DNA of 29,165 nucleotides from a virus (lineage: Duplodnaviria; Heunggongvirae; Uroviricota; Caudoviricetes), in the IMG/VR virus record IMGVR_UViG_2563366903_000025, positions 1 through 29,165 of that record, one strand, 5' to 3'. Shown here piece after piece: positions 4,854-21,492 of the stretch. Under the pieces are notes generated by a model, which was given only the letters and a program-made list of their open reading frames with translations, did no database searches and was not told where the DNA came from. Each line of letters begins with the position of its first letter. Positions within the stretch are counted from its first letter, which is position 1. Both the position numbers and the translations under genes were made by a program.

Positions 4854-5321
4854 TTAATTCAGGCACTGAGTGCGGATATAGTCCTGTGCCCCTTCCAGCT
4901 GCTTCTGCATCAGCATCAACCGCTCTCTGAGGGTGAAATAATCCCGTTCAGCGGTGTCTGCCAGTCGGGGGCCGGTTGCATTATCCACGCCGGAGGTGCC
5001 GGTGGCTTCACGCACGGTACCGGAGCAGGTGGCGTTGATCCGCAGGCGCTTACGACCAGCGGCAACATCAGCACGCAGAGTTTCATTTTCAGCTCTCGCA
5101 TCAGCTAATTCCCTCGAGTATTTTGCATCGAGCGCAGCAACATCACGCTGGCGCACCTGCATGTCAGTAATGGTTGCGTTTGCCAGCTCCAGCTCTCTGG
5201 CTTTTTTATCGCGCTGCGCTTTGTAGGTGATGGCGTTATCGCGGTAATGGTTTGCTGCCAGCCACAGCGCACCGCAGCCAACCGCCAGGACAATAATCAC
5301 CACACACAGAACACGGTTCAT
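4854..5321 (-). CDS. Rz: Rz i-spanin
   Basis: 155 aa with N-terminal TM segment and coiled-coil body ([20 protein letters not shown]...[15 protein letters not shown]), closely resembling phage 21/lambda Rz as I recall it. Start overlaps the methyltransferase stop (ATGA). Confidence 0.88.
4916..5086 (-). CDS. Rz1: Rz1 o-spanin lipoprotein (embedded in Rz in the +1 frame)
   Basis: From ATG 5086: [17 protein letters not shown]..., a signal peptide with lipobox (VSAC) followed by a proline-rich body. Embedded position within Rz is diagnostic. Confidence 0.8.
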
Positions 5322-6262
5322 ATCACTACCATTTCACTGTTTTCTTTTTTCAGGCGTTTTTTTGCAACAGCGAAATACCGGTCATCCTTTTCTATTCCGG
5401 TAAACCATCTCCCCGTCCGGATACACGCAACACCTGTTGAACCACTCCCCATAGTAAAATCCAGGACCATATCGCCGGGGTTACTGTACGTCTGAATCAG
5501 CTCTTCCAGTAAGGGCACCGGCTTCTGAGTGGGGTGAAAACGCACTTTTTCCCGTGAGTACTCCAGCACATTTGAACGGTATTTTCTCCCGGCGGGGAGA
5601 TTAAACACCTTTTGACCGTAGGCATGATTAAGCTGACACATCGCTTCATATGTCATGAACCCCGGCATCCGGTCGATGCCAAAGCGTTCGATTAATTCGT
5701 TGTACGTTGCCCGTGAGCAGAGGGAAAACTGCGTGGTGTTAACCCTGAAAAAGTGCTCAGCCCGACAGTGTCCAAGCACCTTGTTAACCTCCTTGCCTGA
5801 CCGGTAACCGGTGAAGGAAAGAATGCTTCTGACGTATTCCCTCAGCGGGTGCTTTTTCTCACTATCATATTTTTTGCTGAACACAACAATGTCCTCGAAC
5901 AGCGATACCGGCGCCTTTGGGGCTACCAGCGGATTGGCAAAATGATTTTTTTTCCACACCATGCGATACGAAAACGGCAGATTGTTCAGCGCCTGAGTAA
6001 TCATCGTGCTGGTGTACGGCTCCTGACCGAACAGAATCAGTGTCCCGTTTACCCTCAGCAGACGCTCACACTGTAAGAATATCTCCACCGGGGGTAATGC
6101 TTCATCCCATGATGCTTTCCCTGAATCCCATGAAGGCAGGTTTAGCCCCTTAATGGTTCCATAGGGTGGATCAACGAGGATAAGGTCAATGCTTCCTTCC
6201 GGTAACGTTGGCATAATCTCCAGACAGTCACCATGATACAGAGAACTGTTCATCTCTTTCAC
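5318..6262 (-). CDS. DNA methyltransferase (beta-class N6-adenine or N4-cytosine; orphan, no restriction partner seen)
   Basis: 314 aa. N-terminal DPPY motif (LILVDPPYG) and C-terminal AdoMet-binding motif ([15 protein letters not shown] with upstream HPTQKP). Motif order IV...I suggests the beta class. No adjacent endonuclease-like ORF. Confidence 0.8.
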
Positions 6263-6395: not shown

Positions 6396-6488
6396 CCCCT
6401 TGATAGCAGTAATTAACTGGGCAACCACCCATAAAAACGGAATCAGCCAGACCAGCAAAAATTTCCAGTCCATTTTTATCATCTTCAT
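6396..6488 (-). CDS. Small hydrophobic peptide (30 aa)
   Basis: My translation from ATG 6488, which overlaps the antirepressor stop (ATGA): MKMIKMDWKFLLVWLIPFLWVVAQLITAIKG. Below the ORF-track length cutoff. Confidence 0.3.
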
Positions 6489-7180
6489 GCTGCGGTAGCT
6501 CTCCATGCAGCAAGCAGACCAGCAATCCACTCAACACCTTTTGGGGTGAATTTAACCTGCGTAAAAGCATGACCATTGCCCGCCTCGCCCGTTTTCACGC
6601 TAAACCGCCCCGCATCCAGGTGATGCGAGTAAGGCGTCATTTTTCCAGCGAGGCGATACATTATTCCGTTCTCCAACAAAAACAGCCGGAAATCGGTTTC
6701 TTTGATACCGAGTAACTTAGCAACTTCCCGGAATCCCATCAGACCAGATGCTTCAACATAGTTATCAACAAATTCGGCCTTCGGCGCTGCTATTGCCAGT
6801 TGATTTTCCAGCACTGCTTTCTGTTCAGCCAGTTTTGCCGCAAATCGCAACGCCTCAGGTAAAGTCCGGGGGATCTGAATACCATGCATCGCTTTGAGTC
6901 TTGCCAGCACAGAACGACGAACGGCCTTTGACTCCCTCATGCCAACGAGCATCATCTGGTCAAAATCCAGATCATAGTATGCCGTTCTTGTCTGGTTATT
7001 GTTTAACCGGAATTTTTTTCCGGTTCCATCAAGCTCTAGCTCATCCTCAATTTTTGCAAGAAACTTACGCGGTTCATGAGGGACTTCTCCGGCTTCTGCC
7101 CGGGCTGGATTAATAATGTTATTCAGAAAATCCAGACTACTCATGGATATTTCATGATCGACAGAAATCATCTCTTTCAT
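6485..7180 (-). CDS. Antirepressor-like protein with KilA-C-type C-terminal domain
   Basis: 231 aa. C-terminal segment LPEALRFAAKLAEQKAVLENQLAIAAPKAEFVDNYVEASG... is paralogous to the C-terminus of the 13088..13816 gene ([40 protein letters not shown]). Confidence 0.65.
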   Translation of the reverse strand: MKEMISVDHEISMSSLDFLNNIINPARAEAGEVPHEPRKFLAKIEDELELDGTGKKFRLNNNQTRTAYYDLDFDQMMLVGMRESKAVRRSVLARLKAMHGIQIPRTLPEALRFAAKLAEQKAVLENQLAIAAPKAEFVDNYVEASGLMGFREVAKLLGIKETDFRLFLLENGIMYRLAGKMTPYSHHLDAGRFSVKTGEAGNGHAFTQVKFTPKGVEWIAGLLAAWRATAA

Positions 7181-8932: not shown

Positions 8933-10915
8933 TTATGATGATGCCCGGCTTTCGTTAACTTTGACTGTGACCGTATCAAGCAGTACCGGATACGTCGCTT
9001 TTGCCCCCGTGATATCTGTCAGCGTCAGCGTATCTGCTGTAAAGCCATCATTTGTCCACATCACCAGGTCAAACGCAGACTGCTCTGCATCATCAATCAC
9101 CGGCACCACTTTTTCGCTGTTATTTCCCGCAAAGCGGAAAACAACTGTATGCCAGTTATGGTCAAATGCCCCAAATGTGCCCAGTTGCGCATTCGACTCC
9201 CCCTTGTGGTACATCAGATTCAGATTTGATGCATCCGTCTGAAGGAAGAAGGACGCCAGCATGCTGTTTGCTGTCGCGCCTGACGCCCACTGCGACACCG
9301 GCCAGTACAGACCAAAGACAAACTGACCGTTAACCAGTTCGACACCCTCCGGGATCTTAAACCGCACGGCAATTTCACCTCCCTTACTGAGAAGATTTTT
9401 TGCCTCCTCCACCGCAACAGTACGGAACATCTTCCAGGAGGTCAGTTTACCCGGCTGTTTTTCCAGTCGCAGCGCCTTCCTGCCACTGTCATCCGTCACA
9501 GTGCCTTTACCACCGGACGCATTCCACTGCTGCTCTGTCCATACACCACTGCCACTGTTCGCATCATATCCGGCCACCATTCTTGTTACGGCTTCAGTAT
9601 GACCGCCTGCAGAAGTACCTGCACCCTGCTGTTGCGTCGGACCCGCAGAGCCAGACTGTGCATCCCCCGTGGAGGCTGGCGTGGTCGCCAGCGGTGCAGA
9701 CTGCCCGCTCAGGAACGGCAGCAAACGCCCGGCTCGCACCAGTATCTCTCCTGCCAGCCGATCTGAAACAATGCCTCTTCGCGCCCAGGAGCTGAAGTGC
9801 GTTTTACGATCGGCTGTCGTCCAGTTACCATTACTGCGTGACGCGGCACCATAGTATCCCGCCGTGATAATGTCCGGATCTTCTGACGGCTCGTTTGTCG
9901 GCACATTCGCACCATGCTCATCCGTCATCAACGGCACAAAGTGAATATTCTGCGCCGCCTTGCCTTTATAGCCTCCGTAAACCGCCTCATACTGCACTGC
10001 ATACTTCGCCTTCCAGTCGTACGTGGTGTCACCGCAAATCCACGGGACGCCGGACGTTGTCCCGCCAATACACTGGTCTGCAATATCTGCCAGGTCTGCA
10101 CGGTATTTATTTACCATGGCAAGAAAAAGTGCATTGTGCTCTGCATGTCTCCCCGAACTGACATCTTTTTCCCCCTGCATCCAGATCACCGACAACAGCA
10201 CGTTTTTCGGATTTTTCTTCAGGGCTGCACGCGTTCTGCTGACCAGGTCACGATACAACGGTTTATCCACCCCCCACAGGGAAGAGCCCGCTGTCGCACC
10301 CGACGCCTCATTAAACGCGCCCTCTGCTCCCGCAGTAAATCCCGAATCGCCACGTCCACACGGGACAAGAAGGATCCCCGCACGGGCAGGCATAAACGGC
10401 AGCAGTTTTTTGGCCACATGCAGGGCATGCCCCACACAGCCATACTGCCCTTTATTGAGGTCTGCTTTCGGGTGATTCAGATTACTCACGTCCTGCACAT
10501 CATGCAGACAATGGTCTGCAGGAATAATGTCGTTATATGCACAGGCCGCACCGCCCGGTGTCACCGTGCTGCGACGCGCCAGTTGCTTAATACGCGGGTC
10601 AGGACGATCATACGTATCCGGCAGCGGCAGCCCCTCGCCAAAAGACATCGAGTTGGACTGCCCGGCCAGCGCAATGACAAAGTAATATTCCGGTTCGCTG
10701 GTGGTGCTGATAACAGCGCCACCATCACCCGACGGTTGCACCACCACCGGTGTGGTGACATCACCTTCCGCCGCAATGGCCTGCATCAGGGTATAGGGCG
10801 TGATGGCCACCGGACTGCCAAATGGCTGCCACCCCTCCTTCAGTTTTTGAGTCAGTCGCTCCGCAAGGTCTGACGGCGACGCCGCCCTGACCACGTCATA
10901 GTGTTTAAATGTCAT
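8933..10915 (-). CDS. nanS: Prophage sialate O-acetylesterase (NanS-p-like; SGNH/SASA esterase)
   Basis: 660 aa. N-terminus MTFKHYDVVRAASPSDLAERL (DUF1737-like), a GQSN block (FVIALAGQSNSMSFGEG) typical of SGNH/SASA esterases, and a long C-terminal extension. Positioned downstream of Q, as NanS-p genes are in Stx and lambdoid prophages. Confidence 0.8.
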   Translation of the reverse strand: MTFKHYDVVRAASPSDLAERLTQKLKEGWQPFGSPVAITPYTLMQAIAAEGDVTTPVVVQPSGDGGAVISTTSEPEYYFVIALAGQSNSMSFGEGLPLPDTYDRPDPRIKQLARRSTVTPGGAACAYNDIIPADHCLHDVQDVSNLNHPKADLNKGQYGCVGHALHVAKKLLPFMPARAGILLVPCGRGDSGFTAGAEGAFNEASGATAGSSLWGVDKPLYRDLVSRTRAALKKNPKNVLLSVIWMQGEKDVSSGRHAEHNALFLAMVNKYRADLADIADQCIGGTTSGVPWICGDTTYDWKAKYAVQYEAVYGGYKGKAAQNIHFVPLMTDEHGANVPTNEPSEDPDIITAGYYGAASRSNGNWTTADRKTHFSSWARRGIVSDRLAGEILVRAGRLLPFLSGQSAPLATTPASTGDAQSGSAGPTQQQGAGTSAGGHTEAVTRMVAGYDANSGSGVWTEQQWNASGGKGTVTDDSGRKALRLEKQPGKLTSWKMFRTVAVEEAKNLLSKGGEIAVRFKIPEGVELVNGQFVFGLYWPVSQWASGATANSMLASFFLQTDASNLNLMYHKGESNAQLGTFGAFDHNWHTVVFRFAGNNSEKVVPVIDDAEQSAFDLVMWTNDGFTADTLTLTDITGAKATYPVLLDTVTVKVNESRASS

Positions 10916-11109
10916 GAATCCTCCCGGTCGGGATAATGTTGTGAGTCAGATGAGGGAACGGGCTGAAGTCCGGAAGTTACAGGACAATGGCAGGAGGAAG
11001 ACTACAGCCCGCAATACGAAAAAGGCCGCGCTATTGCGCAGAGTGATTACTGTCGGATATTATTCGCCAGCTGAAATATTACTTCACGTTTTGTTGTTTA
11101 TTCCTTGCC

Positions 11110-11138
11110 GCCCGCGTCTCCCAGCGCGGGCTTTTTTT
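11110..11138 (+). terminator. Plus-strand intrinsic terminator in the Q-nanS intergenic region
   Basis: GCCCGCG-tctcccag-CGCGGGC followed by T7. Confidence 0.5.
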
Positions 11139-11150
11139 GTCCATAAGAAA

Positions 11151-11168
11151 GCCCCTCCGGAGAGGGGC
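11151..11168 (-). terminator. Minus-strand terminator-like hairpin, convergent with the previous terminator
   Basis: GCCCCTC-cgga-GAGGGGC. Minus-strand RNA is followed by UUUCUUAU. Confidence 0.35.
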
Positions 11169-11469
11169 TGGAGAGTGGCGCTATGTGCCATTGCATGGTG
11201 CCGGGTGCCTCCCGGTGAGTTCAGTATCAGCACCTGAACCCGCACAGAAAGGATAAGGGTCGGTGACAAAACACCAGTTGCTGATTGCCCCTCCGCACAG
11301 GGGGATTCACCATGCCAGTTTCTTTTAACAAACTCCCCGCAAACCAGACAACAGTCAACCGCCTGAATTGTGAGGTATTTAAAAATTTCAACGGGTAACT
11401 GATACCCTGCTAATCGCCTGATGCTTTCTTTTTCAGCAACGGGAAAGCAACAACCACCACACCCACCAG

Positions 11470-11496
11470 CCGCCCATTTACCACAAATAAAAAAGC
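11470..11496 (-). terminator. Intrinsic terminator after the 65-aa gene
   Basis: Minus RNA: GCCUUC-cgcagu-GAAGGC followed by UUUUUUAUUU. Confidence 0.5.
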
Positions 11497-11498
11497 CT

Positions 11499-11696
11499 TC
11501 ACTGCGGAAGGCGTCTGTAACAACCGAACTGATAGTCTGCCAGACCCGCCATAACCAGCTGGGTCAGTATTAACTGGCAGCGTTCGCGTGAAAGGTAAGT
11601 ATTCTGCGCAATCTCCCCGACTGTCGCCGGTTCGGTGGCACTTAATTCATTAAACACCACTCTGGCGGTTTCTGTCATATCCTGCTGTTTTAGCAT
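11499..11696 (-). CDS. Hypothetical small protein (65 aa from ATG 11696)
   Basis: MLKQQDMTETARVVFNELSATEPATVGEIAQNTYLSRERCQLILTQLVMAGLADYQFGCYRRLPQ, a possible small winged-helix-like protein. First gene after tR' in the late transcript. Confidence 0.4.
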   Translation of the reverse strand: MLKQQDMTETARVVFNELSATEPATVGEIAQNTYLSRERCQLILTQLVMAGLADYQFGCYRRLPQ

Positions 11697-11816
11697 GTCT
11701 TTTTCCCTTTTCCGGTTAACGTGACACACCAATAACTCTTGTCGAAAAAGCCAGCAAGCTGAAAGACCGGTATTCACCACCACCAGCACGTTTACTGTAC
11801 TGATGCGATTTCAGTC

Positions 11817-11840
11817 ATAAAAAACCCGCCAGGCGGCGGG
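11817..11840 (-). terminator. tR'-like terminator downstream of Q (end of the short pR' leader transcript)
   Basis: CCCGCC-gccu-GGCGGG followed by UUUUUU on the minus strand, about 60 bp downstream of the Q stop, matching lambda pR'/6S/tR' organisation. Confidence 0.55.
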
Positions 11841-11900
11841 TTTAAGTTGTGTGGCGTAGTAACCACTCTTAACATACTGACATACTTTTTGCGGACCGCG

Positions 11901-12293
11901 CTAATCATTTTTTACTTTTTTGGGCAGCCAGTCGTCCATCTCCAGCCTTACACCCAGCATCGACAGACATCCGTCAATAAATCCTTCAGCAATCTGCATC
12001 TCAATTCGTATTGCCTTTTCGCTCTTCTTTCTTGTTCTGGCAATCTGCCTTTTTGATATGCGCAGCAGATAATGAGCTACCAGCAGCGAATACTCGTCCG
12101 GTTTTTTCTTCTTCAGGCGCGTAAGGCAGTTTTCGATGATAAGGCCGTCATCATCGCTGCAGGCCGGGCGAGGTTTAGCGGTGGATGGTAAAAGGCCTTT
12201 AAATCCAGCAGCTATCGGAGAATAGTCCACCCCGGTGTTACCACTTGCCGCCCATGCCCCCCAGCGTTCAAGAACCTGCTGAATATCACGCAT
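11901..12293 (-). CDS. Q: Late antiterminator Q (933W/21-type Q family)
   Basis: From ATG 12293: [35 protein letters not shown]...LKKKKPDEYSLLVAHYL...RLEMD, matching the Q933W-type pattern as recalled. Overlaps the ninH 3' end. Confidence 0.8.
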   Translation of the reverse strand: MRDIQQVLERWGAWAASGNTGVDYSPIAAGFKGLLPSTAKPRPACSDDDGLIIENCLTRLKKKKPDEYSLLVAHYLLRISKRQIARTRKKSEKAIRIEMQIAEGFIDGCLSMLGVRLEMDDWLPKKVKND

Positions 12294-12486
12294 CAGAGTC
12301 TTTACCCTTATCCCATCCACGATGGACCATAAGGACACCGTTGACGACGGCGTGCCGTTTGCCTTCTTTATCGCCAATATATTTTCTGACCGTGTTGCGA
12401 CTACAGTTCAGTATTCTGGCTACCTCGGTCTGATTTTCATATGCCTCAACGAGCATGTCAGGAATGGTTTTTACTGTGAACGTCAT
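12286..12486 (-). CDS. ninH: NinH
   Basis: 66 aa [58 protein letters not shown], near-identical to lambda NinH as recalled. Confidence 0.85.
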
Positions 12487-13088
12487 GCGGCCTCACTTCT
12501 GCTGTTTCGCAGGTCTTTGAGTTTCTGTTGGTACTCTGCCTTGATGGCCCTGCACTCTTCGACAGTCCAGCGATGGCGGTTATGGTTTGATTCGATTTCA
12601 TCTACTGCTTCCTGCCCGATGCGGCTAATCAGTTCGACGCGATACGGAACGAGATTTCCGCTTTTGTGCTGGTTGCACACCACGCATTGCTTGTGAATAT
12701 TGCGTTCATCAAATCGGAGTTGAGGTGCCGCAGCAGTTGTCCGGTAATGTCCGGCATCCCACTGAGCAGACGTGAGCGTTCCGCACGAGATACATGGTAA
12801 GTCGCGGTCTCTTTCTCTGATGAAGGCGTTTACGGCTTGTTGGGCTTGTTTAATCCAGTAACTGCGGGGCTTTAAGGCGAGTTTTCGAATCTTCAGTTTA
12901 TCTTTCTGTTTCTGCTCCTCTCGTCGTCGTTTCTTCTCTGCTGCTTTTTCCGCTTTTTCGCGTTCTTTACTTCGTCGTTCGAGTGCTAATTGAGTTCCGT
13001 GTTCCGGGCAGCACCACCACTGATTTGAGAATGCCGGGTGAAACCATTCCTTGCATATTTTGCATTTCCTTCGCGCTGGTTTAGCCAT
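12483..13088 (-). CDS. ninG: NinG (Rap) recombination protein
   Basis: 201 aa, near-identical to lambda NinG over most of its length ([61 protein letters not shown]...). Confidence 0.9.
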
Positions 13089-13816
13089 TAAGCAGCCTCC
13101 CCTGTTACTTTCAGCATTCCGTTATCGAGCAGCTTTCTGGTCAGCCACTGTTGACCACGCCCGGTGATTTTTGTGGTGAACGATATCTGTATTCCGTGAT
13201 TTGTGTTGACCGCTGTTTCTTTCACTGTGAAATAGCCGCGCTCCATATATTCCTGCATTGGCACATTTCGCCGGGAACCTGAAGTAATAAGGATTTTGTG
13301 ATCGCGCATCCACGCAAACAGTTTGTTTGGACCAATTCCAACAACCTTTGCATAGTTTCCAATCAAAATTCCGCTGGCCTCGCCAACGCGATCGGCAAAC
13401 TCAACTTTAGGTGCTGCGAGAGCAAGCTGTTTCTCCAGTTCAGCCTTCTGGTCTTCAAGGTCGGCCGCAAGGCGCAATGCCTCAGAAAAGGTTTGTGGTA
13501 TTTTCGCGGTTGCCCCTTCGAGTTCTCGCCAACGGTCAACAAGACGAGCGGTGAATTCCGGCGACAACTGAGCGACGACAATAATGCTGTCGCGCTTACC
13601 TTTTTCGCCTTCGAAGACGTAATGCTCGTACTGAACATTGAACCCTAAGTTATTGATTCTTTCGGAAACCTCAATTTGAGGAAGCCGGATAACTCCACTT
13701 TTAACCAGCGTTTCGATGGTTCGTTTCACATTGTCATGACGCTTACCTGTAAGCTCAGCGATTTCAATGCTAGTCATTTTGATGACGTTGCTATTTATCA
13801 GCTCGTTCATTGTCAT
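13088..13816 (-). CDS. Rha N-terminal / KilA-C C-terminal antirepressor-like protein (Roi-like)
   Basis: 242 aa. N-terminal Rha hallmark ([19 protein letters not shown]) and C-terminal KilA-C-like domain. Located between ninG and the nin accessory gene. Confidence 0.7.
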
Positions 13817-13840
13817 GTCCTCTCATATTGAAAATTCACC

Positions 13841-13865
13841 AATAAAAAACCCAGCCGAAGCTGGG
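13841..13865 (-). terminator. Intrinsic terminator (second of a tandem pair)
   Basis: Minus RNA: CCCAGC-uucg-GCUGGG followed by UUUUUUAUU. Confidence 0.5.
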
Positions 13866-13934
13866 TTTGTTAAGTTGTCAATGGTCAGTAGTAATGCAGT
13901 GAAGGAGGTAAACTTACGCTGAAGGATTTGTACA

Positions 13935-13955
13935 AAAAAACCACCTGAAGGTGGG
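13935..13955 (-). terminator. Intrinsic terminator immediately after the nin accessory gene
   Basis: Minus RNA: CCACC-uuca-GGUGG followed by U7. Confidence 0.5.
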
Positions 13956-13961
13956 TTACTG

Positions 13962-14975
13962 TTACTTGTCTGAATCATCCAGTTCGTCTGTTTTCACATC
14001 CTCAAACCTTGGATGCAGGCGATTCATTTTTGCAATAAAATCTGAATAGTCGTTAGATAGCTTCATAATCGTAACGGTTGATGACAGATGCTCTCTTAAT
14101 TTTTGATATCCAATATTTGGCGTCAGCCCCTGAAACAACTTTGTACCTTTTGAGGCCTTTACGTTCTGCTTTTTAAGCTCCTCAAGGATGTTTGGTGCCA
14201 ATCTCTTGTAGACGATATCATTTGTCAAAACGCCAAAATACTGAGGCCGGAAGCGGGGATTTTCCGGCGGGTATTCTAAGCCCCTTAACCTGAAAAGCTC
14301 TTCATAATAATCAGCAGGAAATGTTGTAATATAAGGTTGAATTTCCTTTGCGACAAAGGCCTCGAGTATTTTGGCGAGCGCATCTTTTTCTCTATCTCGC
14401 TGGTACCCCGTCGCTTCATCAACAAGCGCTATTATTCCGACTTTAGCTAATGAGCGCACCAGAATTTCAGCTTTCTTGGCTGTCTCTAACTGGTTTGGCC
14501 TGGTGATAGCGCCTGCCTCTCTTGCCTTTAAATAAACATCGCAGACAAGAGGTATTATGGATGCGTCATAACCTTCCTGGACGGAGCCAGTAATCGTCTT
14601 GTATTTGACCTTATTGATCACACCCATAACATCTTGATTTATATATTTTTTAAGGTTTGCAGCATCCATAAAAGCGGGCATATTGATCACCCCCTCTTCT
14701 TGAGGTGCTCTACCCCCTCTTTGTGGTCGGCCAAATGCTTTAAAAACAGAAGCTTGTGATATGATACGCCGTCCATTTTCGAGAACCGCGACATCTAATT
14801 CCGCATCACCGATCTTTAACTTTCCCTCATTCGCAGATACGGGCAATAAAGCTTTTTCTTTTTTTGCGGCAACAGCCTTTCTTGAGGATTCTTTTCTTTG
14901 CTCTGCTGTCATTTTTGCCGCGCGTGCCTTACCGCCTTTGGCCTTCCCACTAACATCATCATTTTTCATGAGCAT
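13962..14975 (-). CDS. AT-rich accessory (moron) protein of unknown function, 338 aa from ATG 14975 (possibly P63C-like; unverified)
   Basis: Long ORF with a Lys/Ala-rich N-terminus and a conserved-looking core (IALVDEATGYQRDREKDALAKILEAF...FRPQYFGVLTNDIVYKRL). Codon usage visibly AT-richer than flanking lambda-like nin genes. Own promoter upstream and terminators downstream. Confidence 0.5.
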   Translation of the reverse strand: MLMKNDDVSGKAKGGKARAAKMTAEQRKESSRKAVAAKKEKALLPVSANEGKLKIGDAELDVAVLENGRRIISQASVFKAFGRPQRGGRAPQEEGVINMPAFMDAANLKKYINQDVMGVINKVKYKTITGSVQEGYDASIIPLVCDVYLKAREAGAITRPNQLETAKKAEILVRSLAKVGIIALVDEATGYQRDREKDALAKILEAFVAKEIQPYITTFPADYYEELFRLRGLEYPPENPRFRPQYFGVLTNDIVYKRLAPNILEELKKQNVKASKGTKLFQGLTPNIGYQKLREHLSSTVTIMKLSNDYSDFIAKMNRLHPRFEDVKTDELDDSDK

Positions 14976-15000
14976 ATCTCGTGTTGTGATTGATAAGTCA

Positions 15001-15046
15001 ATTATACACATGCACGTTGTAACGTGCAATATTTAAATATGCACGT
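15001..15046 (-). promoter_or_regulatory. Near-consensus sigma70 promoter with overlapping operator-like palindromes upstream of the nin accessory gene
   Basis: Minus strand reads TTGCAC-17 nt-TATAAT (-35 at 15029..15024, -10 at 15006..15001). A perfect palindrome GCACGTTGTAACGTGC (15012-15027) overlaps the -35 and spacer. A second dyad ACGTGCA-N11-TGCACGT spans 15022-15046. Confidence 0.5.
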
Positions 15047-15192
15047 AAATTGCGAATCAGATAATGAGGAGACTTTCTCCCCCTTGCACTGACATCATGG
15101 TATTCTGCTCAAAACTAAATTTCTGGAGCGTTTCGTTGGAAGGTATTTGCAGTTTTCGCAGATGATGTCGGTGATGCTTCGTCGCTGTCGCC

Positions 15193-15633
15193 TCATGCAG
15201 CCCTGTCTCCCCATCTCGCTTTCCATTCCAGAGCCAGTCTCGCTTCGTCTGACCACTTAACGCCACGCTCTGTACCGAATGCCTGTATAAGCTCTAATAG
15301 CTCCGCAAATTCGCTTACACGCATCCTGCTGGTTGACTGGCCTATTACCACAAAGCCATTCCCGGCAAGGTTAGGAACAACATCCTGCTGCTTTAATGCT
15401 GCGGTAAACACACACTTCCAGCTTTCTGCATCCAGCCAGCGACCATGCCATTCAACCTGACGAGAGACGTCACCTAAGCAGGCCCATAGCTTCCTGTTTT
15501 GGTCTAAGCTGCGGTTGCGTTCCTGAATGGTTACTACGATTGGTTTGGTTGGGTCTGGAAGAATTTGCTGGATAGCTTGAATGGCGTTCTGCTGATGGAT
15601 GGGGCTTCTTAGTTCAAATGTTAGTTTCCTCAT
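15193..15633 (-). CDS. ninB: NinB (Orf) recombination protein
   Basis: From ATG 15633: [76 protein letters not shown]..., near-identical to lambda NinB as recalled. Confidence 0.9.
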
Positions 15634-15802
15634 CACCCTTAATCCTCTCGAAGTTCTTCTCGAAGTTTTTGGTGTCGAACACTGACCACCGACCATTATG
15701 AATGGCGTATGCACAGGTCTTGTTTTCGTCCTGATAAACTACCCTTACCTTGCGATAAAACCGTGGCTTAATCTCTCTGAATATTTGCTCGCTCATGCTC
15801 AC
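15614..15802 (-). CDS. Hypothetical protein (62 aa)
   Basis: Strong AAGGAG RBS upstream of the ATG. Overlaps the ninB start by 20 nt. No recognised family. Confidence 0.45.
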   Translation of the reverse strand: MSMSEQIFREIKPRFYRKVRVVYQDENKTCAYAIHNGRWSVFDTKNFEKNFERIKGDEETNI

Positions 15803-16507: not shown

Positions 16508-16794
16508 CTTTTAACTCCATATACCGCCAATACCCGTTTCATCACTGCACTCTGGCGACACTCCTTAAAAATCAGGTTCGTGCTCACCTTTCCTTCCCGT
16601 TCTTCCCTGGTAGCAAACCGGTAATACACCGTTCGCCAGACCTTACCATCAATGACCAGGATTCCTGCCCGCGCCATTTTAGCCGCAGCCTGATTTATAC
16701 TGGTTACGGTTGCGCCTGTTACCGCGGAAACGTCCTGTGCACAGAAGTTCTTATGCGCCCCGAGGTAATGAATAATTGCCTCTTTGCCCGTCAT
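16504..16794 (-). CDS. ren: Ren
   Basis: 96 aa MTGKEAIIHYLGAHKNFCAQDVSAVTGATVTSINQAAAKMARAGILVIDGKVWRTVYYRFATREEREGK..., near-identical to lambda Ren as recalled. Confidence 0.9.
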   Translation of the reverse strand: MTGKEAIIHYLGAHKNFCAQDVSAVTGATVTSINQAAAKMARAGILVIDGKVWRTVYYRFATREEREGKVSTNLIFKECRQSAVMKRVLAVYGVKR

Positions 16795-17492
16795 ACACTT
16801 GCTCCTTTCAGTCCGAACTTAGCTTTAATTTCTGCGATCTTCGCCAGAGCCTGTGCTCGATTTAGAGGTCTGCCGCCCATGACAGGAAGTTGTTTTACTG
16901 GTTCAGGTATCGTCTCACCACGGTTAATTCGTGCTGTCATACAGGTCAGTTCATCGGCAGCCTTGCGCCGTAATTCCGCGTCAGTCAGCGCATTGGCCCG
17001 CATGTTCTGGTACAGGTTGGTAACCAGCCAGTAGTGCGCGTTTGATTTCCACGGATAAGACTCTGCATCCGGATACAGGCCACGCTTCCGGCAATACTCG
17101 TAAACCATATCAACCAGCTCGCTGACGTTTGGCAGTCCGGCGATAACGGATGCTTCTTCCCGGCACCATGCAACAAACTGCCCGGGTGATGGAAGAAATG
17201 GTCGATTCTGCCGACGGGCTACGCGCATTCCTGCGTTAACCTGTTCCATCGAGGTGATCCCGTTTTCCCGGAAAGCCAGAACCCACTGGCGGCGGATTTC
17301 ATTCAGTTCGTTCTGGCCCCGGTTAGCCAGACTCGCCGGGAAAGTTGCCAGTAACTGGCTGAACACACCGTTGATGATCTGCGCTACCTGTTGTACCTGC
17401 GGCTTTTCGTCGTACTGTTCCGGCATGTTGTTGGCGATCCGACGCATCTGCTCACGGTCAAAGTTAACCATCTGTGCGGCGATGTTTTTCAT
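16791..17492 (-). CDS. P: Replication protein P (DnaB helicase loader)
   Basis: 233 aa, essentially lambda P throughout ([58 protein letters not shown]...). Confidence 0.95.
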   Translation of the reverse strand: MKNIAAQMVNFDREQMRRIANNMPEQYDEKPQVQQVAQIINGVFSQLLATFPASLANRGQNELNEIRRQWVLAFRENGITSMEQVNAGMRVARRQNRPFLPSPGQFVAWCREEASVIAGLPNVSELVDMVYEYCRKRGLYPDAESYPWKSNAHYWLVTNLYQNMRANALTDAELRRKAADELTCMTARINRGETIPEPVKQLPVMGGRPLNRAQALAKIAEIKAKFGLKGASV

Positions 17493-18394
17493 AAATCCAC
17501 CCCGTAAATCCAGTCAGTGTTTGTCAGGTCGAGTTTTGGTTTTCCAGCTGTCACGCCAGCCTGTTGCTTGTTACGGTTGATTTCGAGTTGGGTCCACTTG
17601 TCGCGGAGTTTGGCCGGACTTAGCACGTTACCGGACCAGAAGTTGTCCTGGCATGCCCAGCGGAACAGCACGCACATGTCGCGGTGGTTACGTCCGTCAC
17701 GTTCACGCATCAGGCGGATATCGTTAGCCCACCCTGCAAAATTCGGTTTTCTGGCTGATGGTGCGATGGTCTTCACCATGTCAAACATCCACTCTGCGGC
17801 GGTCAGGTCTTCTGCTGTTCCCCACTTGCTGCCGCTCTGAATTGCAGCATCCGGTTTAACCACAGAAAGATCGTTTTCTGGCTGGTCAGAGGATTCGCCA
17901 GAATTCTCGGACGAATAATCTTTTCTTTTTTCTTTTGTAATAGTTTCTTTTGTGTGTCCCTGTTTTGGTGACAGCGCTGTCACCGTTTTGGTGACACTTT
18001 TTGTCACCAATGCAGTGACATTATCACCAGAGTAGTGACACCCTTCGATTTGCCATTCCTCGATGTTCTTGTTAGGCCCGATTTGCTGGCCTTCGCGAAG
18101 GATAACCTTCATCGCGATAAGCTCATTCTTGGCCTTGTTTACCTTCTGTCTTGGCAGCCTGGTAATTTGAGCTAACTGACTATCAGAGATGCGATCCATC
18201 TTTTTACCGTAGCCGTATGTTTTACGGCATATGGCGTGGGCAACCTTGCTCTGATTTTTCGTTAAATCTGCGCCGATAAGCTCTTCATACAGGGCATTTG
18301 CAAGACGGGTATAACCATCTTCAACTTCTGCCACACGACGCTCCACAGGCCGTTGTGAAGGCCTTAAATGTGTTACGGTTGCAAGATTACTCAT
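17489..18394 (-). CDS. O: Replication initiator O
   Basis: 301 aa. C-terminal half matches lambda O ([13 protein letters not shown]...[100 protein letters not shown]). N-terminal DNA-binding half is diverged, consistent with a different iteron specificity. Confidence 0.95.
17915..18043. repeat. Replication origin: iteron cluster plus adjacent AT-rich region inside the O gene
   Basis: Four tandem dyad iterons built on GTGACA...TGTCAC: GGTGACAGCGCTGTCACC (17967-17984), GGTGACACTTTTTGTCACC (17990-18008), GTGACATTATCACC (18015-18028), GTGACACCC (18035-18043). A T-rich stretch follows at 17915-17950, in the same position as ori-lambda within O. Confidence 0.7.
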
Positions 18395-19228: not shown

Positions 19229-19243
19229 AGGGATATCCTTTTT

Positions 19244-19258
19244 CGTACTTTCAGTACG
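19244..19258. promoter_or_regulatory. Operator palindrome in OR (CGTACT-TTC-AGTACG), overlapping the pR start region
   Basis: Perfect 6-bp arms. A related AGTA-TCG-TACT element sits at 19295-19305 just before the cI ATG. Confidence 0.55.
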
Positions 19259-19259
19259 C

Positions 19260-19287
19260 ATTATGATTGAACTGAAAGTTTTTGCAA
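19260..19287 (-). promoter_or_regulatory. pR-like promoter for cro
   Basis: Minus strand reads TTGCAA-16 nt-CATAAT, immediately upstream of the operator palindrome and the cro RBS. Confidence 0.5.
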
Positions 19288-19306
19288 GTGCTTTAGTATC
19301 GTACTC

Positions 19307-20014
19307 ATGGTTCAGAATGAAAAAGTGCGCAAAGAATTCGCCCAGCGGCTAGCGCAAGCCTGTAAAGAAGCTGGTCTTGATGAACATGGTAGGGGAATGG
19401 CTATAGCCCGTGCCCTTTCTCTTTCGTCCAAAGGCGTTAGCAAATGGTTTAATGCTGAGTCTTTACCGCGTCAGGAAAAAATGAATGCGCTTGCGAAATT
19501 TCTAAACGTTGATGTTGTTTGGCTTCAGCACGGCACTTCGTTAAATGGAGCGAATGATGAAGATACTCTTTCATTTGTTGGCAAATTAAAAAAAGGGTTA
19601 GTGCGCGTGGTTGGTGAGGCAATTCTTGGTGTTGATGGTGCCATCGAGATGACCGAAGAGCGCGATGGGTGGCTCAAAATTTATAGCGATGATCCAGATG
19701 CCTTTGGTCTTCGTGTGAAAGGAGACAGCATGTGGCCCAGAATAAAATCAGGAGAATATGTACTCATTGAGCCTAACACCAAAGTATTTCCGGGGGATGA
19801 GGTGTTTGTCAGAACTGTTGAAGGACACAACATGATCAAAGTTCTTGGCTATGACAGAGACGGAGAATACCAATTTACAAGCATCAACCAGGACCACAGG
19901 CCAATAACGTTGCCTTATCATCAAGTAGCAAAGGTGGAGTATGTGGCTGGTATTCTGAAGCAATCTCGCCATCTGGATGACATCGAGGCAAGGGAGTGGC
20001 TGAAAAGTTCGTGA
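19307..20014 (+). CDS. cI: CI-type prophage repressor (HTH plus LexA/S24-like autocleavage domain)
   Basis: 235 aa. N-terminal HTH region, then a C-terminal domain with S24-like features (GDSMWPRIKSGEYVLIEP...). Divergent from cro across the operator region. The ATG sits directly after the operator, suggesting a leaderless pRM-type transcript as in lambda. Confidence 0.88.
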   Translation: MVQNEKVRKEFAQRLAQACKEAGLDEHGRGMAIARALSLSSKGVSKWFNAESLPRQEKMNALAKFLNVDVVWLQHGTSLNGANDEDTLSFVGKLKKGLVRVVGEAILGVDGAIEMTEERDGWLKIYSDDPDAFGLRVKGDSMWPRIKSGEYVLIEPNTKVFPGDEVFVRTVEGHNMIKVLGYDRDGEYQFTSINQDHRPITLPYHQVAKVEYVAGILKQSRHLDDIEAREWLKSS

Positions 20015-20150: not shown

Positions 20151-20438
20151 ATGAAGGTCTTAAACGTAGAGAGGCTTCACAGTTTTAGCCGGAAGCACAA
20201 TCAGGCCAAGGGGGCTTTAGACTCTTGGTATGATGAAGTGATAAGAGAAAACTGGAAAACGACTCAAGACATACGGAATAGATTTAATTCTGCCGACTTC
20301 CTTCCTAACAACAGGGTAATTTTTAATATAAAAGGCAATAACTATCGGCTCGTTGTCCAAGTTGTTTACCAGGCAGGAATGGTCATAGTTGAAAGAGTTG
20401 GAACTCATGCAGAGTACGACAAGTGGAGGCTTAAATGA
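20151..20438 (+). CDS. higB: HigB-family toxin (RelE/ParE superfamily)
   Basis: 95 aa. C-terminal ...GNNYRLVVQVVYQAGMVIVERVGTHAEYDKW parallels E. coli HigB ...NELRVVAMVFFESQKCYIREVMTHKEYD as recalled. Toxin-first order typical of hig loci. Stop overlaps the next start (ATGA). Confidence 0.75.
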   Translation: MKVLNVERLHSFSRKHNQAKGALDSWYDEVIRENWKTTQDIRNRFNSADFLPNNRVIFNIKGNNYRLVVQVVYQAGMVIVERVGTHAEYDKWRLK

Positions 20439-21091
20439 ATCGAACTAGCTGGCGCATCATTAAAAATAGTGAAGAGCATGCTGCAGCTATGGAAAGGCTC
20501 ATTGAACTTGCGTCTAGTGATTTACAACCTGGAACTGAAGATTTTGATGAGTTTGAACTACTAGGCTTGCTTATCGAGCACTATGAGTCACGCGAGTTCC
20601 CTATGGACAAGCCAGATCCCATAGAAGCAATCAAGTTCCGTATGGATCAACAAGGCCTCTCTTATGCCGATATGAAACAATACATTGGCTCAGCATCTAA
20701 AGTATCTGAGGTCTTAAATCGTAAGCGTCCATTAAGTCTTTCAATGATCCGTAGACTACATGACGGACTTGGAATTCCTGCAGATATCTTAATTCAAGAT
20801 ATGAGCGCAATTGAATGGAGCCTAGTTGACGCAGAGGAAGAAGAAACAGCCATGACTAGCGTCATTGCTCGGTGTGAGTCAGCCGTCACATCACCTTCTG
20901 CTTATTTCGCTGAAAAGGCTACAGAATCTTACTTTTCAAAAATGTTGTTCAGCGCAGTAAGGGGTAATGGCAAATGCAAAGAAAAACGGAATGTTTTTTC
21001 TTTGATAAGTAACTTGTCATCAAGTTTCACAGCGGCTAGCAACCTGAATGACGAAATGACTTCTGACGGAAATTACTTATTATTACCATGA
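20435..21091 (+). CDS. higA: HigA-family HTH antitoxin with about 95-aa C-terminal extension
   Basis: 218 aa. Residues up to about 125 match the HigA pattern (PDPIEAIKFRMDQQGLSYADMKQYIGSASKVSEVLNRKRPLSLSMIRRLHDGLGIPADILI). Canonical HigA ends there; this protein continues with an acidic, Ser-rich tail. Confidence 0.75.
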   Translation: MNRTSWRIIKNSEEHAAAMERLIELASSDLQPGTEDFDEFELLGLLIEHYESREFPMDKPDPIEAIKFRMDQQGLSYADMKQYIGSASKVSEVLNRKRPLSLSMIRRLHDGLGIPADILIQDMSAIEWSLVDAEEEETAMTSVIARCESAVTSPSAYFAEKATESYFSKMLFSAVRGNGKCKEKRNVFSLISNLSSSFTAASNLNDEMTSDGNYLLLP

Positions 21092-21492
21092 AAATTGAAC
21101 TCATTAGCAAAAAAGTTGAACGCTTGGTTATGACACGGCTAGAAGGCGATTCAACAGCAAAAAAAGCCATAAAAACAACCGTTAATCTAAATAATGAACT
21201 TTACACTAATGTGAAGGATTCAAAGCTATTTAGAGTGAGATATTTTGCCTCCGTAACTATTGAAGGCAGGCTTGAGATGGACATCACATACGACTTTGAC
21301 TTCCGGTCAGAAGATGATTTTTCTCATGAAATGGCAAAATCATATGAGGTAAGGTCCATTGCTCCCAATATGGCATATCCCTATATAAAAACATATGCCG
21401 AGCAAATTATCCTCATGTCAAACCTTGGTAGGTTCACTCTGCCTTATTTTGATTTCTTGGCCAATCCCATGGAAACGAACAGTAATAAGTGA
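21088..21492 (+). CDS. SecB-like chaperone candidate (third gene of the cassette)
   Basis: 134 aa, translationally coupled (ATGA). Segments FRVRYFASVTIEG and APNMAYPYIKTYAEQIILMSNLGRF resemble E. coli SecB ([34 protein letters not shown]) as recalled from memory. Confidence 0.55.
   Translation: MKIELISKKVERLVMTRLEGDSTAKKAIKTTVNLNNELYTNVKDSKLFRVRYFASVTIEGRLEMDITYDFDFRSEDDFSHEMAKSYEVRSIAPNMAYPYIKTYAEQIILMSNLGRFTLPYFDFLANPMETNSNK

Follow-up and report, generated by a model that had tools for sequence, protein, structure and literature searches.

The DNA analysed here, called the window below, is a stretch of 29,165 nt, positions 1 to 29,165 of the virus record IMGVR_UViG_2563366903_000025 of IMG/VR (Caudoviricetes). 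It is a lambdoid prophage whose early-right operon lies on the minus strand, and a gene of the P63C family follows ninB in that operon. The gene itself is already in databases, and the concept of the moron, reportedly due to Juhala, Hendrix and colleagues, is an old one. What appears to be new is an operator architecture found family-wide upstream of such genes, which covaries with one residue of a previously undescribed N-terminal arm of the encoded protein. The locus contains the following features.

15095-15196, minus strand: ninE remnant left by the insertion, with 26 native codons, 7 foreign ones and a stop
13934-15118, minus strand: mobile moron unit of 1,185 bp, made up of a leader of about 70 nt, the operator/promoter, the P63C gene and terminator 1
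15066-15082, minus strand: upstream hairpin GGGGAGA-AAG-UCUCCUC
15039-15046, minus strand: site 1, ACGTGCAT
15021-15029, minus strand: site 2, TTGCACGTT, in the opposite orientation
15010-15018, minus strand: site 3, AACGTGCAT, in the promoter spacer
15001-15006, minus strand: putative -10 hexamer, TATAAT
14978-14988, minus strand: box CACAACACGAG of the 5′ untranslated region, holding a weak Shine-Dalgarno sequence, GAG
13962-14975, minus strand: P63C-family gene (L0095/NP_049495 of phage 933W), 337 amino acids from ATG 14975
14850-14945, minus strand: N-terminal basic helical arm, residues 11-42, GGKARAAKMTAEQRKESSRKAVAAKKEKA, the proposed operator-recognition element
14097-14369, minus strand: Pfam P63C domain, residues 203-293, within the conserved C-terminal half
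13934-13957, minus strand: terminator 1, CCACC-UUCA-GGUGG followed by U7, at the end of the cassette
13838-13872, minus strand: terminator 2, a nin-region terminator in conserved DNA upstream of roi, outside the cassette

The open frame runs from 13962 to 15029 and has two usable starts, ATG 14975 (337 residues) and ATG 14969 (335 residues). The second is more likely, judging from the N termini of homologues and from a conserved spacing of 8 or 9 nt between GAG and ATG. The 349-residue start given in RefSeq (15011) would fall within the promoter. An earlier note on this DNA had listed an AT-rich open reading frame (ORF) of 338 amino acids. The frame is there, but that count included the stop codon, the real length being 337, and the AT-richness is modest, since the G+C content is 0.42-0.43 compared with 0.46-0.51 in the flanks.

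The protein is 100% identical to L0095 (NP_049495) of the Shiga toxin 2 (Stx2) phage 933W, which is annotated as a “P63C domain-containing protein.” Its single Pfam match is PF10546 (residues 203-293), at 84.1 bits against a gathering cut-off of 26.1 bits (1e-23), so that the guess of a P63C-like protein in the earlier note was right. In PHROGs, it matches phrog_2384, of “unknown function” (2e-146). All 38 aligned homologues match PF10546, and no second domain was detected in these 38 family members with Pfam at a permissive E-value. The conserved C-terminal half begins with an invariant VDEATGYQ motif (residues 185-192). The polar residues that are invariant in the family include D186, E187, T189, G190, Q192, R195, N252, Y256, R258, E295 and H321, and they would fit an active site or a conserved interaction surface. 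AlphaFold predicted a beta/alpha domain with confidence for residues 45-155 and, less confidently, a helical half, with a mean predicted local distance difference test score (pLDDT) of 74 and a predicted template modelling score (pTM) of 0.51. The helices of the arm are predicted at residues 11-20 and 24-42. The hidden Markov model and structure-based searches proposed in the earlier note thus yielded PF10546, but no match to a fold or functional family.

On the minus strand, the region upstream of the gene reads ACGTGCA TATTTAAATAT TGCACGTT AC AACGTGCA TGTG TATAAT ... CACAACACGAG AT ATG CTC ATG AAA. The putative promoter described in the earlier note is exact as spelled out, with TTGCAC at 15029-15024 and TATAAT at 15006-15001 separated by 17 nt. 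It is near-consensus only in part, however. The -35 hexamer agrees with TTGACA at 3 of 6 positions, which is why a consensus scanner did not list the promoter, and the consensus -10 hexamer is a private allele. It results from a G-to-A variant at about 15003, the hexamer being TATGAT in 933W, in all other copies examined or fetched and in 49/49 complete Escherichia coli genomes in which the cassette is present. Should the promoter be active, a raised basal level would be expected for the TATAAT copy.

The symmetrical elements around this promoter can be described as three sites. Site 1 lies upstream of the promoter, site 2 lies on the -35 hexamer, which it contains (15029-15024), and site 3 lies in the spacer, with 11 nt between sites 1 and 2 and 2 nt between sites 2 and 3. 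The central GT of the “perfect 16-bp palindrome” GCACGTTGTAACGTGC of the earlier note is not its own reverse complement, and the element is really an 8+2+8 inverted repeat formed by sites 2 and 3 (15011-15028; arms TGCACGTT and AACGTGCA of 8 nt, 2 nt apart). The second dyad that it reported, ACGTGCA-N11-TGCACGT, is exact (15022-15046). The heptamer TGCACGT occurs four times in the window, compared with 4.1 expected, and three of these four occurrences are packed into 36 bp; an 18-bp inverted repeat with up to three mismatches is expected 0.14 times per window. There is no second copy of the site cluster anywhere in the window.

Full-length relatives of the protein, at 41-70% identity, were found in genome scans of Proteobacteria, Actinobacteria, Chloroflexi, Planctomycetes, Acidobacteria, Chlamydiae, Nitrospira and Bacteroidetes. 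One search for relatives returned at least 6,761 proteins, and the C-terminal half alone, used as the query, returned 2,125 clusters at 50% identity. We collected 83 non-redundant homologue loci, searched 210 nt upstream of each gene and took the flanking DNA as background. A family site of 8 to 10 bp emerged, with the consensus ATGCAAGCAT and the enterobacterial form ACGTGCAT, which is enriched 16- to 58-fold. Counts for its main forms were as follows.

GCAAGCA/TGCTTGC: 122 observed, 3.5 expected, in 45 loci
ATGCTTG: 115 observed, 2.0 expected, in 50 loci
ACGTGCA: 27 observed, 1.7 expected, in 14 loci
GCACGCA: 24 observed, 2.3 expected, in 12 loci

Two to five sites are present in 61 of the 83 loci. 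Typically a forward site at -65 to -80 is followed about 20 bp later by a reverse site and then by a forward site at -14 to -30; a fourth site often overlaps the start codon. The clusters are largely specific to the gene: the 955 kb of fetched DNA holds 70 clusters in which at least three sites fall within 90 bp, and 57 of them precede a P63C gene, the other 13 being in GC-rich coding DNA. In 37/83 loci, a TTGCx borne by a site is followed 16 to 18 nt on by a TAnnnT hexamer, compared with 1.7 expected from shuffles, arguing that a site on the -35 hexamer is a design of the family. The window conforms to it, with site 3, which is conserved in homologues, shifted into the spacer. Among enterobacterial cassettes encoding proteins at 59-90% identity, the sequence and position of the three sites are retained, whereas the spacers have diverged. 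The site architecture is conserved with the gene family across phyla.

Two further elements accompany the sites. The CACAACACGAG box is nearly letter-perfect in cassettes whose proteins are 47-90% identical, and its position is constant, about 12 nt 3′ of the -10 hexamer and 8-9 nt 5′ of the ATG; on comparison of these sequences, its conservation exceeds what a weak Shine-Dalgarno sequence would need. In many homologous cassettes, a clear terminator hairpin is found just 5′ of site 1. The hairpin at the equivalent place in the window (dG of -14.8 with its flanks) has a z-score of -1.6, which is not significant alone, and is possibly a weak insulating terminator. A search of Rfam with E-values up to 1 matched no known RNA element.

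The 83 proteins were aligned to find the column that best predicts the type of site. Residue 30 (337-residue numbering; Ser30, encoded at 14886-14888), in the arm helix TAEQRKES(30)SRKAVAAKK, has the highest mutual information with site type of all columns (0.92, compared with 0.67 for the next column, in 83 proteins). It is Ile in 37/40 loci with GCAAGC sites and Ser or Ala in 16/18 loci with GCACG(C/T) sites, and Asn at this position pairs with GCTAGC. Two or more GCAAGC sites are present in 39 of the 49 loci that encode Ile or Val and in one of the 34 that encode other residues (Fisher p = 7e-13). On a neighbour-joining tree built from residues 45-337 only, which excludes the arm, the residue class switches at least 15 times, yet 39 tips pair Ile/Val with AAG, 16 pair Ser/Ala with ACG and none is discordant. 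Ser/Ala proteins usually have Ile proteins as their closest kin in the C-terminal part. Certain relatives have a zinc-ribbon DNA-binding module of the IS1595 type in place of the arm. A Streptococcus homologue without the arm is also without the sites, and its gene lies 35 nt behind a repressor gene.

Taken together, these observations suggest that the P63C protein most likely binds its own promoter and most likely represses it, repression being favoured over activation because the sites overlap the -35 hexamer and the spacer. We put the probability of homeostatic negative autoregulation by the P63C product at roughly 60%. In the mechanism that we propose, the N-terminal basic arm (GGxARA-x2-[LM]T-x-E-x-R-x2-[I/S/A]-...) would read the three sites, and in each of them residue 30 would make contact with the fourth or fifth base, which is variable. 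As the protein accumulates, it would occlude the sigma-70 promoter, so that the cassette could keep its product at a set level in any location, independently of the circuits of its host phage. Read-through from PR, antiterminated by N, would add expression during lytic growth. The earlier note had expected tight, signal-dependent expression through some palindrome-binding factor; the sites and the residue covariation indicate the gene's own product instead, and no sign of a signal was seen.

Such an arrangement is reminiscent of small autoregulated phage and plasmid repressors that occlude their own promoters, such as Mnt and Arc of P22 and the type II antitoxins. The likeness extends to short inverted and direct repeats over the -35 hexamer and spacer and to cis-trans covariation. 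In contrast with those repressors, the candidate DNA binder here is a 30-residue N-terminal arm of a 335-residue protein, the bulk of which is conserved for some other activity, and the cassette has no second regulated gene.

Several points weigh against autoregulation. The positions of the sites are approximate, since a heuristic was used to choose start codons in the 83 loci. None of the three exact hexamer types is present in 14/83 loci; variants resembling them, for example GCAAGT, GCTAGC and TCAAGCA, can be seen by eye in loci of this kind. The arm matched no known DNA-binding family in a Pfam search. Finally, the arm is encoded less than 150 bp from the sites, and recombination in the 5′ end of the gene could transfer both together and inflate the covariation; however, neighbouring residues that are equally linked correlate much less with site type than residue 30 does.

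The gene recurs as a discrete unit. DNA about 99% identical to the cassette is found in at least four prophage contexts that are unrelated, with common limits from 15116-15120 to 13915-13934, and at its 3′ end the shared DNA stops at the T-run of terminator 1. Copies outside the window lie in the following settings.

L004: a P22-like prophage, between ejection-protein genes and mnt/arc/ant (immI region, sieA slot)
L005: a nin region with other neighbours, in an mnt/ant context
L006: a myovirus-like prophage, inside the baseplate module
L088: a nin region with other neighbours

In an alignment with VT2-Sakai, homology is lost inside ninE after ...CGCTCCAGAAAT (about 15118) and regained at about 13912; in its ninE-roi slot, VT2-Sakai has a full ninE and a different gene (H0107). 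The earlier note had the gene interrupting the ninB...ninG series; it does lie in that series, but more precisely it sits inside ninE, which it cuts after codon 26. Where the identical junction occurs elsewhere, PGAP labels the remnant “NinE family protein, incomplete.” The flanks match 363 phage records, of which only 17 contain the P63C gene, and the cassette is present in 49 of 5,426 complete E. coli genomes. The comparison of nin regions across related phages that the note called for thus revealed presence/absence polymorphism, the gene being far from uniformly present.

Tandem terminators had also been noted downstream. Both are present, but only terminator 1 belongs to the cassette. Its hairpin (13954-13941, with the T-run) is weak in the window, with a 5-bp stem, a dG of -9.5 and a z-score of -1.7, and other copies have a 6-bp stem (CCCACC/GGUGGG). 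The hairpin of terminator 2 (13868-13847, with the T-run) is strong (dG of -15.6, z-score of -4.4) and lies outside the unit, because it is identical in VT2-Sakai, which is without the P63C gene.

The cassette is therefore a true moron, a discrete mobile unit, as it recurs in unrelated contexts and is absent from most related phages. The moron reading of the earlier note is borne out by the small number of carriers, by the different gene of VT2-Sakai and by the same 1.19-kb DNA in other contexts; the marks found are presence or absence in collinear relatives, an own terminator, weak here, and a modest shift in G+C content. In the window, it landed in ninE of an stx-less lambdoid prophage resembling Stx phages. 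The classical lambdoid morons include gp15 of HK97, rexAB, lom and bor of lambda and sieA of P22. Like them, the P63C unit is an extra gene between conserved neighbours, with its own terminator, its own predicted promoter, a shifted base composition and a polymorphic distribution, and it uses the same hot spots, namely the nin region, the region downstream of cI, the immI/sieA slot and tail genes. Unlike them, it is unusually well delimited, at about 99% identity across different virion types, and it has its own conserved, putatively autoregulatory operator set, which to our knowledge is not a described feature of classical morons. In phiSTEC801-Stx1a (L002 3264-4306), the P63C gene is frameshifted into two annotated coding sequences and is therefore dispensable for that phage as deposited.

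Relatives of the protein are encoded in 64 of 50,697 phage records. Their carriers include Stx phages, P22-like Salmonella phages and phages of Burkholderia, Gordonia, Pseudomonas, Erwinia and Paracoccus, and prophages of Streptococcus pyogenes encode a relative at 47.5% identity. Copies from E. coli, Streptococcus, Gordonia and Planctomycetes are 42-50% identical to each other. Only the 90-residue P63C domain is shared with p63 of phage Mx8. The genomic positions of the family are varied.

Directly 3′ of cI: L103, and orf23 of phage ST104, in the slot that bstA occupies in the sister phage BTP1
Interval between repressor and integrase genes: S. pyogenes prophages
Adjoining mnt/arc/ant: recurrent
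Interval between tail genes K and I, antisense: Pseudomonas prophages
Inside baseplate modules: either orientation

The positions antisense to late operons and inside lysogeny modules suggest that the gene may be expressed from the repressed prophage.

Other explanations of the gene and its sites have to be weighed against autoregulation in this light. The protein might be an antirepressor-like regulator of the lysis-lysogeny decision, of the Ant/Bro/KilA class, which acts on phage repressors or promoters and whose dose is set by autoregulation. The namesake of the domain (PF10546), p63 of the Myxococcus phage Mx8, is annotated in RefSeq as “anti-repressor Ant,” and the gene recurs beside mnt/arc/ant and lies beside roi here. 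P63C is reportedly among the C-terminal domains that Iyer, Koonin and Aravind described in 2002 as fused to KilA-N or Bro-N-type modules, and the family resembles such regulators in being modular, with a swappable N-terminal module. The structural comparison also showed some weak resemblance to winged-helix-like DNA binders and to models of Bro, KilA and antirepressors. In contrast with these regulators, however, the P63C protein has no significant ANT, Bro-N, KilA-N or P22_AR match; profiles of ANT, Bro-N, KilA-N, P22_AR_N/C and Rha matched none of the 38 family members at E-values up to 5. Homology to P22-type Ant and to the neighbouring Roi was rejected, as hhalign gave a probability of at most 0.1% for either. 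An identity of 42-50% across phyla is hard to square with a partner that evolves as fast as a phage repressor, and the window contains no further sites for the protein to regulate. We thus consider this explanation unlikely.

Alternatively, the repeats could be mainly a cognate “self” tag in the DNA, instead of or besides an operator, that silences the protein when its carrier replicates, as the aba element does for BstA. Variants of BstA have variant elements, and P63C sites likewise vary with the protein; the fourth site lies over the start codon in many loci, and the P63C gene of ST104 occupies the exact slot of bstA in BTP1. We nevertheless regard a tag as quite improbable: the geometry is that of classical operators, with one site on the -35 hexamer and another in the spacer or at the start site, no sign was found of a protein activity that would require silencing, and there is no sequence homology to BstA.

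A third possibility is that the sites are operators for another factor, be it a host transcription factor, the prophage CI or Cro, LexA, Mnt or Arc, which would tie expression to the cycle of the host or phage. The cassette often adjoins mnt/arc/ant modules, and prophage antirepressor genes under LexA control are known in Gifsy and Fels. The operators of P22 Mnt and Arc are unrelated sequences, however. Control of the cassette by LexA was rejected, as the region of the promoter (15000-15060) has no LexA box (CTGT-N8-ACAG with at most one mismatch), the nearest one being at 15185-15200, inside ninB/ninE. Similarly, the prophage cI and cro products were rejected as binders because their operators (CGTACTTTCAGTACG) are unrelated to the sites. 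More generally, the sites accompany the gene into phages that are unrelated and into hosts that range from Proteobacteria to Actinobacteria, Chloroflexi and Planctomycetes, no single regulator is common to such hosts and phages, and the kind of site present follows a residue of the P63C protein. The cassette contains only one gene and is passed between unrelated phages and between phyla, which makes a shared host or phage regulator implausible. Control by another factor is therefore very unlikely.

It is highly improbable that the gene is an ordinary delayed-early nin gene with an inactive promoter-like sequence and expression only by N-antiterminated read-through from PR: its orientation along the early-right operon, the 5-bp stem of its terminator and the 3/6 match of its -35 hexamer would suit such a gene, but the unit is elsewhere antisense to its neighbours or in late operons, out of reach of PR read-through, the promoter geometry is conserved family-wide, and the gene is absent from most relatives.

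Autoregulation leaves the function of the C-terminal half to be considered. By analogy, we tentatively favour a lysogen-expressed defence or superinfection-exclusion protein that would act on incoming phage DNA in the manner of BstA, a guess to which we give somewhat less than an even chance. It is prompted by the repeated occurrence of the family in slots used for exclusion functions, namely those of rexAB/bstA and sieA/immI and those in Gram-positive lysogeny modules. The candidate role in defence, anti-defence or lysogenic conversion that the earlier note proposed likewise rests on gene position. BstA, encoded by the Salmonella prophage BTP1, has a KilA-N-like N-terminal domain, is expressed in lysogeny and keeps incoming phage DNA from replicating; the cognate DNA element, aba, overlaps the start of the gene, and variant proteins have variant elements (PMC8585504). 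Both BstA and the P63C unit are single-gene prophage accessory cassettes of about 300-340 codons with their own terminator. In both, a putative DNA-binding N-terminal part is joined to an uncharacterised conserved C-terminal part, a short cognate 5′ DNA element varies with the protein variant, and the slot downstream of cI is shared, identically so for the P63C homologue of ST104. In contrast, the cassette of the window is in the nin region and not beside cI, and the P63C element has the geometry of a promoter-operator. The defence phenotype and self-immunity are demonstrated for BstA, whereas P63C is known here from sequence alone.

Other results count against a defence function. Membership in the BstA family was rejected: hhalign gave a probability of 0.7%, BstA is without a P63C domain, and a BLASTP comparison of ST104 orf23 with BstA aligned only 77 residues at an E-value of 0.038, the resemblance being limited to a short “VLxDGTxxLS..G” hairpin. 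The structure comparison found no fold match for the protein, and in the literature searched we found neither a functional study of the P63C domain, the family or L0095 nor transcript data for L0095. In addition, the sole match in PADLOC-DB 2.0 is a sub-threshold one to a type I specificity subunit (E = 0.005, 14.7 bits), NCBIfam yielded nothing beyond a sub-threshold PIN match, and sequence searches of the PDB with the single protein and with a profile gave no useful match. An antirepressor-like regulatory role has a small chance in our estimate.

A bolder and doubtful proposal is that P63C is a pan-bacterial family of single-protein prophage defence systems, with a swappable arm, a residue-base code, repeats, recognised by that arm, that serve both as operator and as a “self” tag sparing the prophage in which they lie, and an ultra-conserved VDEATGYQ/P63C half that forms a new effector fold acting on a universally conserved step of phage DNA metabolism. 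The code, which belongs to this joint proposal and shares its low standing, would pair Ile with TGCAAG, Ser or Ala with TGCACG and Asn with GCTAGC.

The P63C gene of 933W, the prototype Shiga-toxin phage, has been “hypothetical” ever since that genome was sequenced. The family occurs in temperate phages of Gram-negative and Gram-positive bacteria, and identity of 42-50% across phyla is unusual for a phage accessory gene. It sits in classical hot spots of prophage defence and exclusion, yet it matches no catalogued defence system; even if it has no defence function, it is among the most widespread uncharacterised lysogeny-associated genes. If self-repression is true, it would account for the ability of a single small cassette to function in settings as different as a nin region, an immunity region and a tail operon. 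It would also reveal a small DNA-recognition arm, not described before, whose specificity can be read from one residue, and the binding sites and point mutants would provide a testable handle on the family.

Some observations concern individual members of the family. The annotated start of ST104 orf23 (L109 3269-3360), ATGCAAGCA..., is itself one of four candidate operator sites, and translation probably begins at an ATG that lies 36 nt further downstream (MSDKESKEP...). The 349-residue RefSeq start of L0095 in 933W has the same problem. A metagenome-assembled genome of Pseudonocardiaceae encodes two P63C paralogues of about 34% identity, on opposite strands and about 2 kb apart (the second at L026 1207-1983). 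On three metagenome contigs of about 59 kb (L100-L102), apparently one element with a Rep3 gene, a 718-codon gene abuts the P63C gene, stop and start being adjacent. The P63C gene of these contigs has no recognisable upstream sites, yet its residue 30 is Ile, and the contigs may represent an operonic variant of the family.

The remainder of the window identifies the prophage as an stx-less relative of Stx phages. There are no tRNA genes, and the integrase gene is at the right end. The main genes are the following.

19307-20014, plus strand: cI
17489-18394, minus strand: O, in the early-right operon, with ren further along the operon
16791-17492, minus strand: P, in the early-right operon
15193-15714, minus strand: ninB, in the early-right operon, followed by the P63C region
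13088-13816, minus strand: roi, encoding a Rha + KilAC protein, in the early-right operon
11901-12377: Q, after ninG and ninH, followed by a nanS-p-like esterase gene, lysis genes and terminase

From Q to the nanS-p-like esterase gene (10915-11900), there are neither stx nor tRNA genes, and the dam methylase gene is missing between ninB and the ninE remnant, in contrast to 933W. The cI-cro intergenic region (19230-19305) has repeats of the CGTACTTTCAGTACG type; these repeats are presumably the immunity (cI/cro) operators and are unrelated to the cassette sites. The LexA-type motif CTGT-N8-ACAG, with at most one mismatch, occurs 19 times in the whole window, whereas shuffled sequence would give 9.5; the esterase gene contains a perfect copy (9486-9501). 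Two ORFs on the plus strand at 20435-21492, of 218 amino acids (with a weak HTH_3 match) and 134 amino acids, adjoin the 3′ side of cI in a rexAB-like slot and may form a further accessory pair expressed in the lysogen. A second KilAC/ANT-domain gene (6485-7180, minus strand) and an N6/N4 DNA methylase gene (5318-6262, minus strand), possibly accessory genes as well, lie between the lysis genes and terminase.

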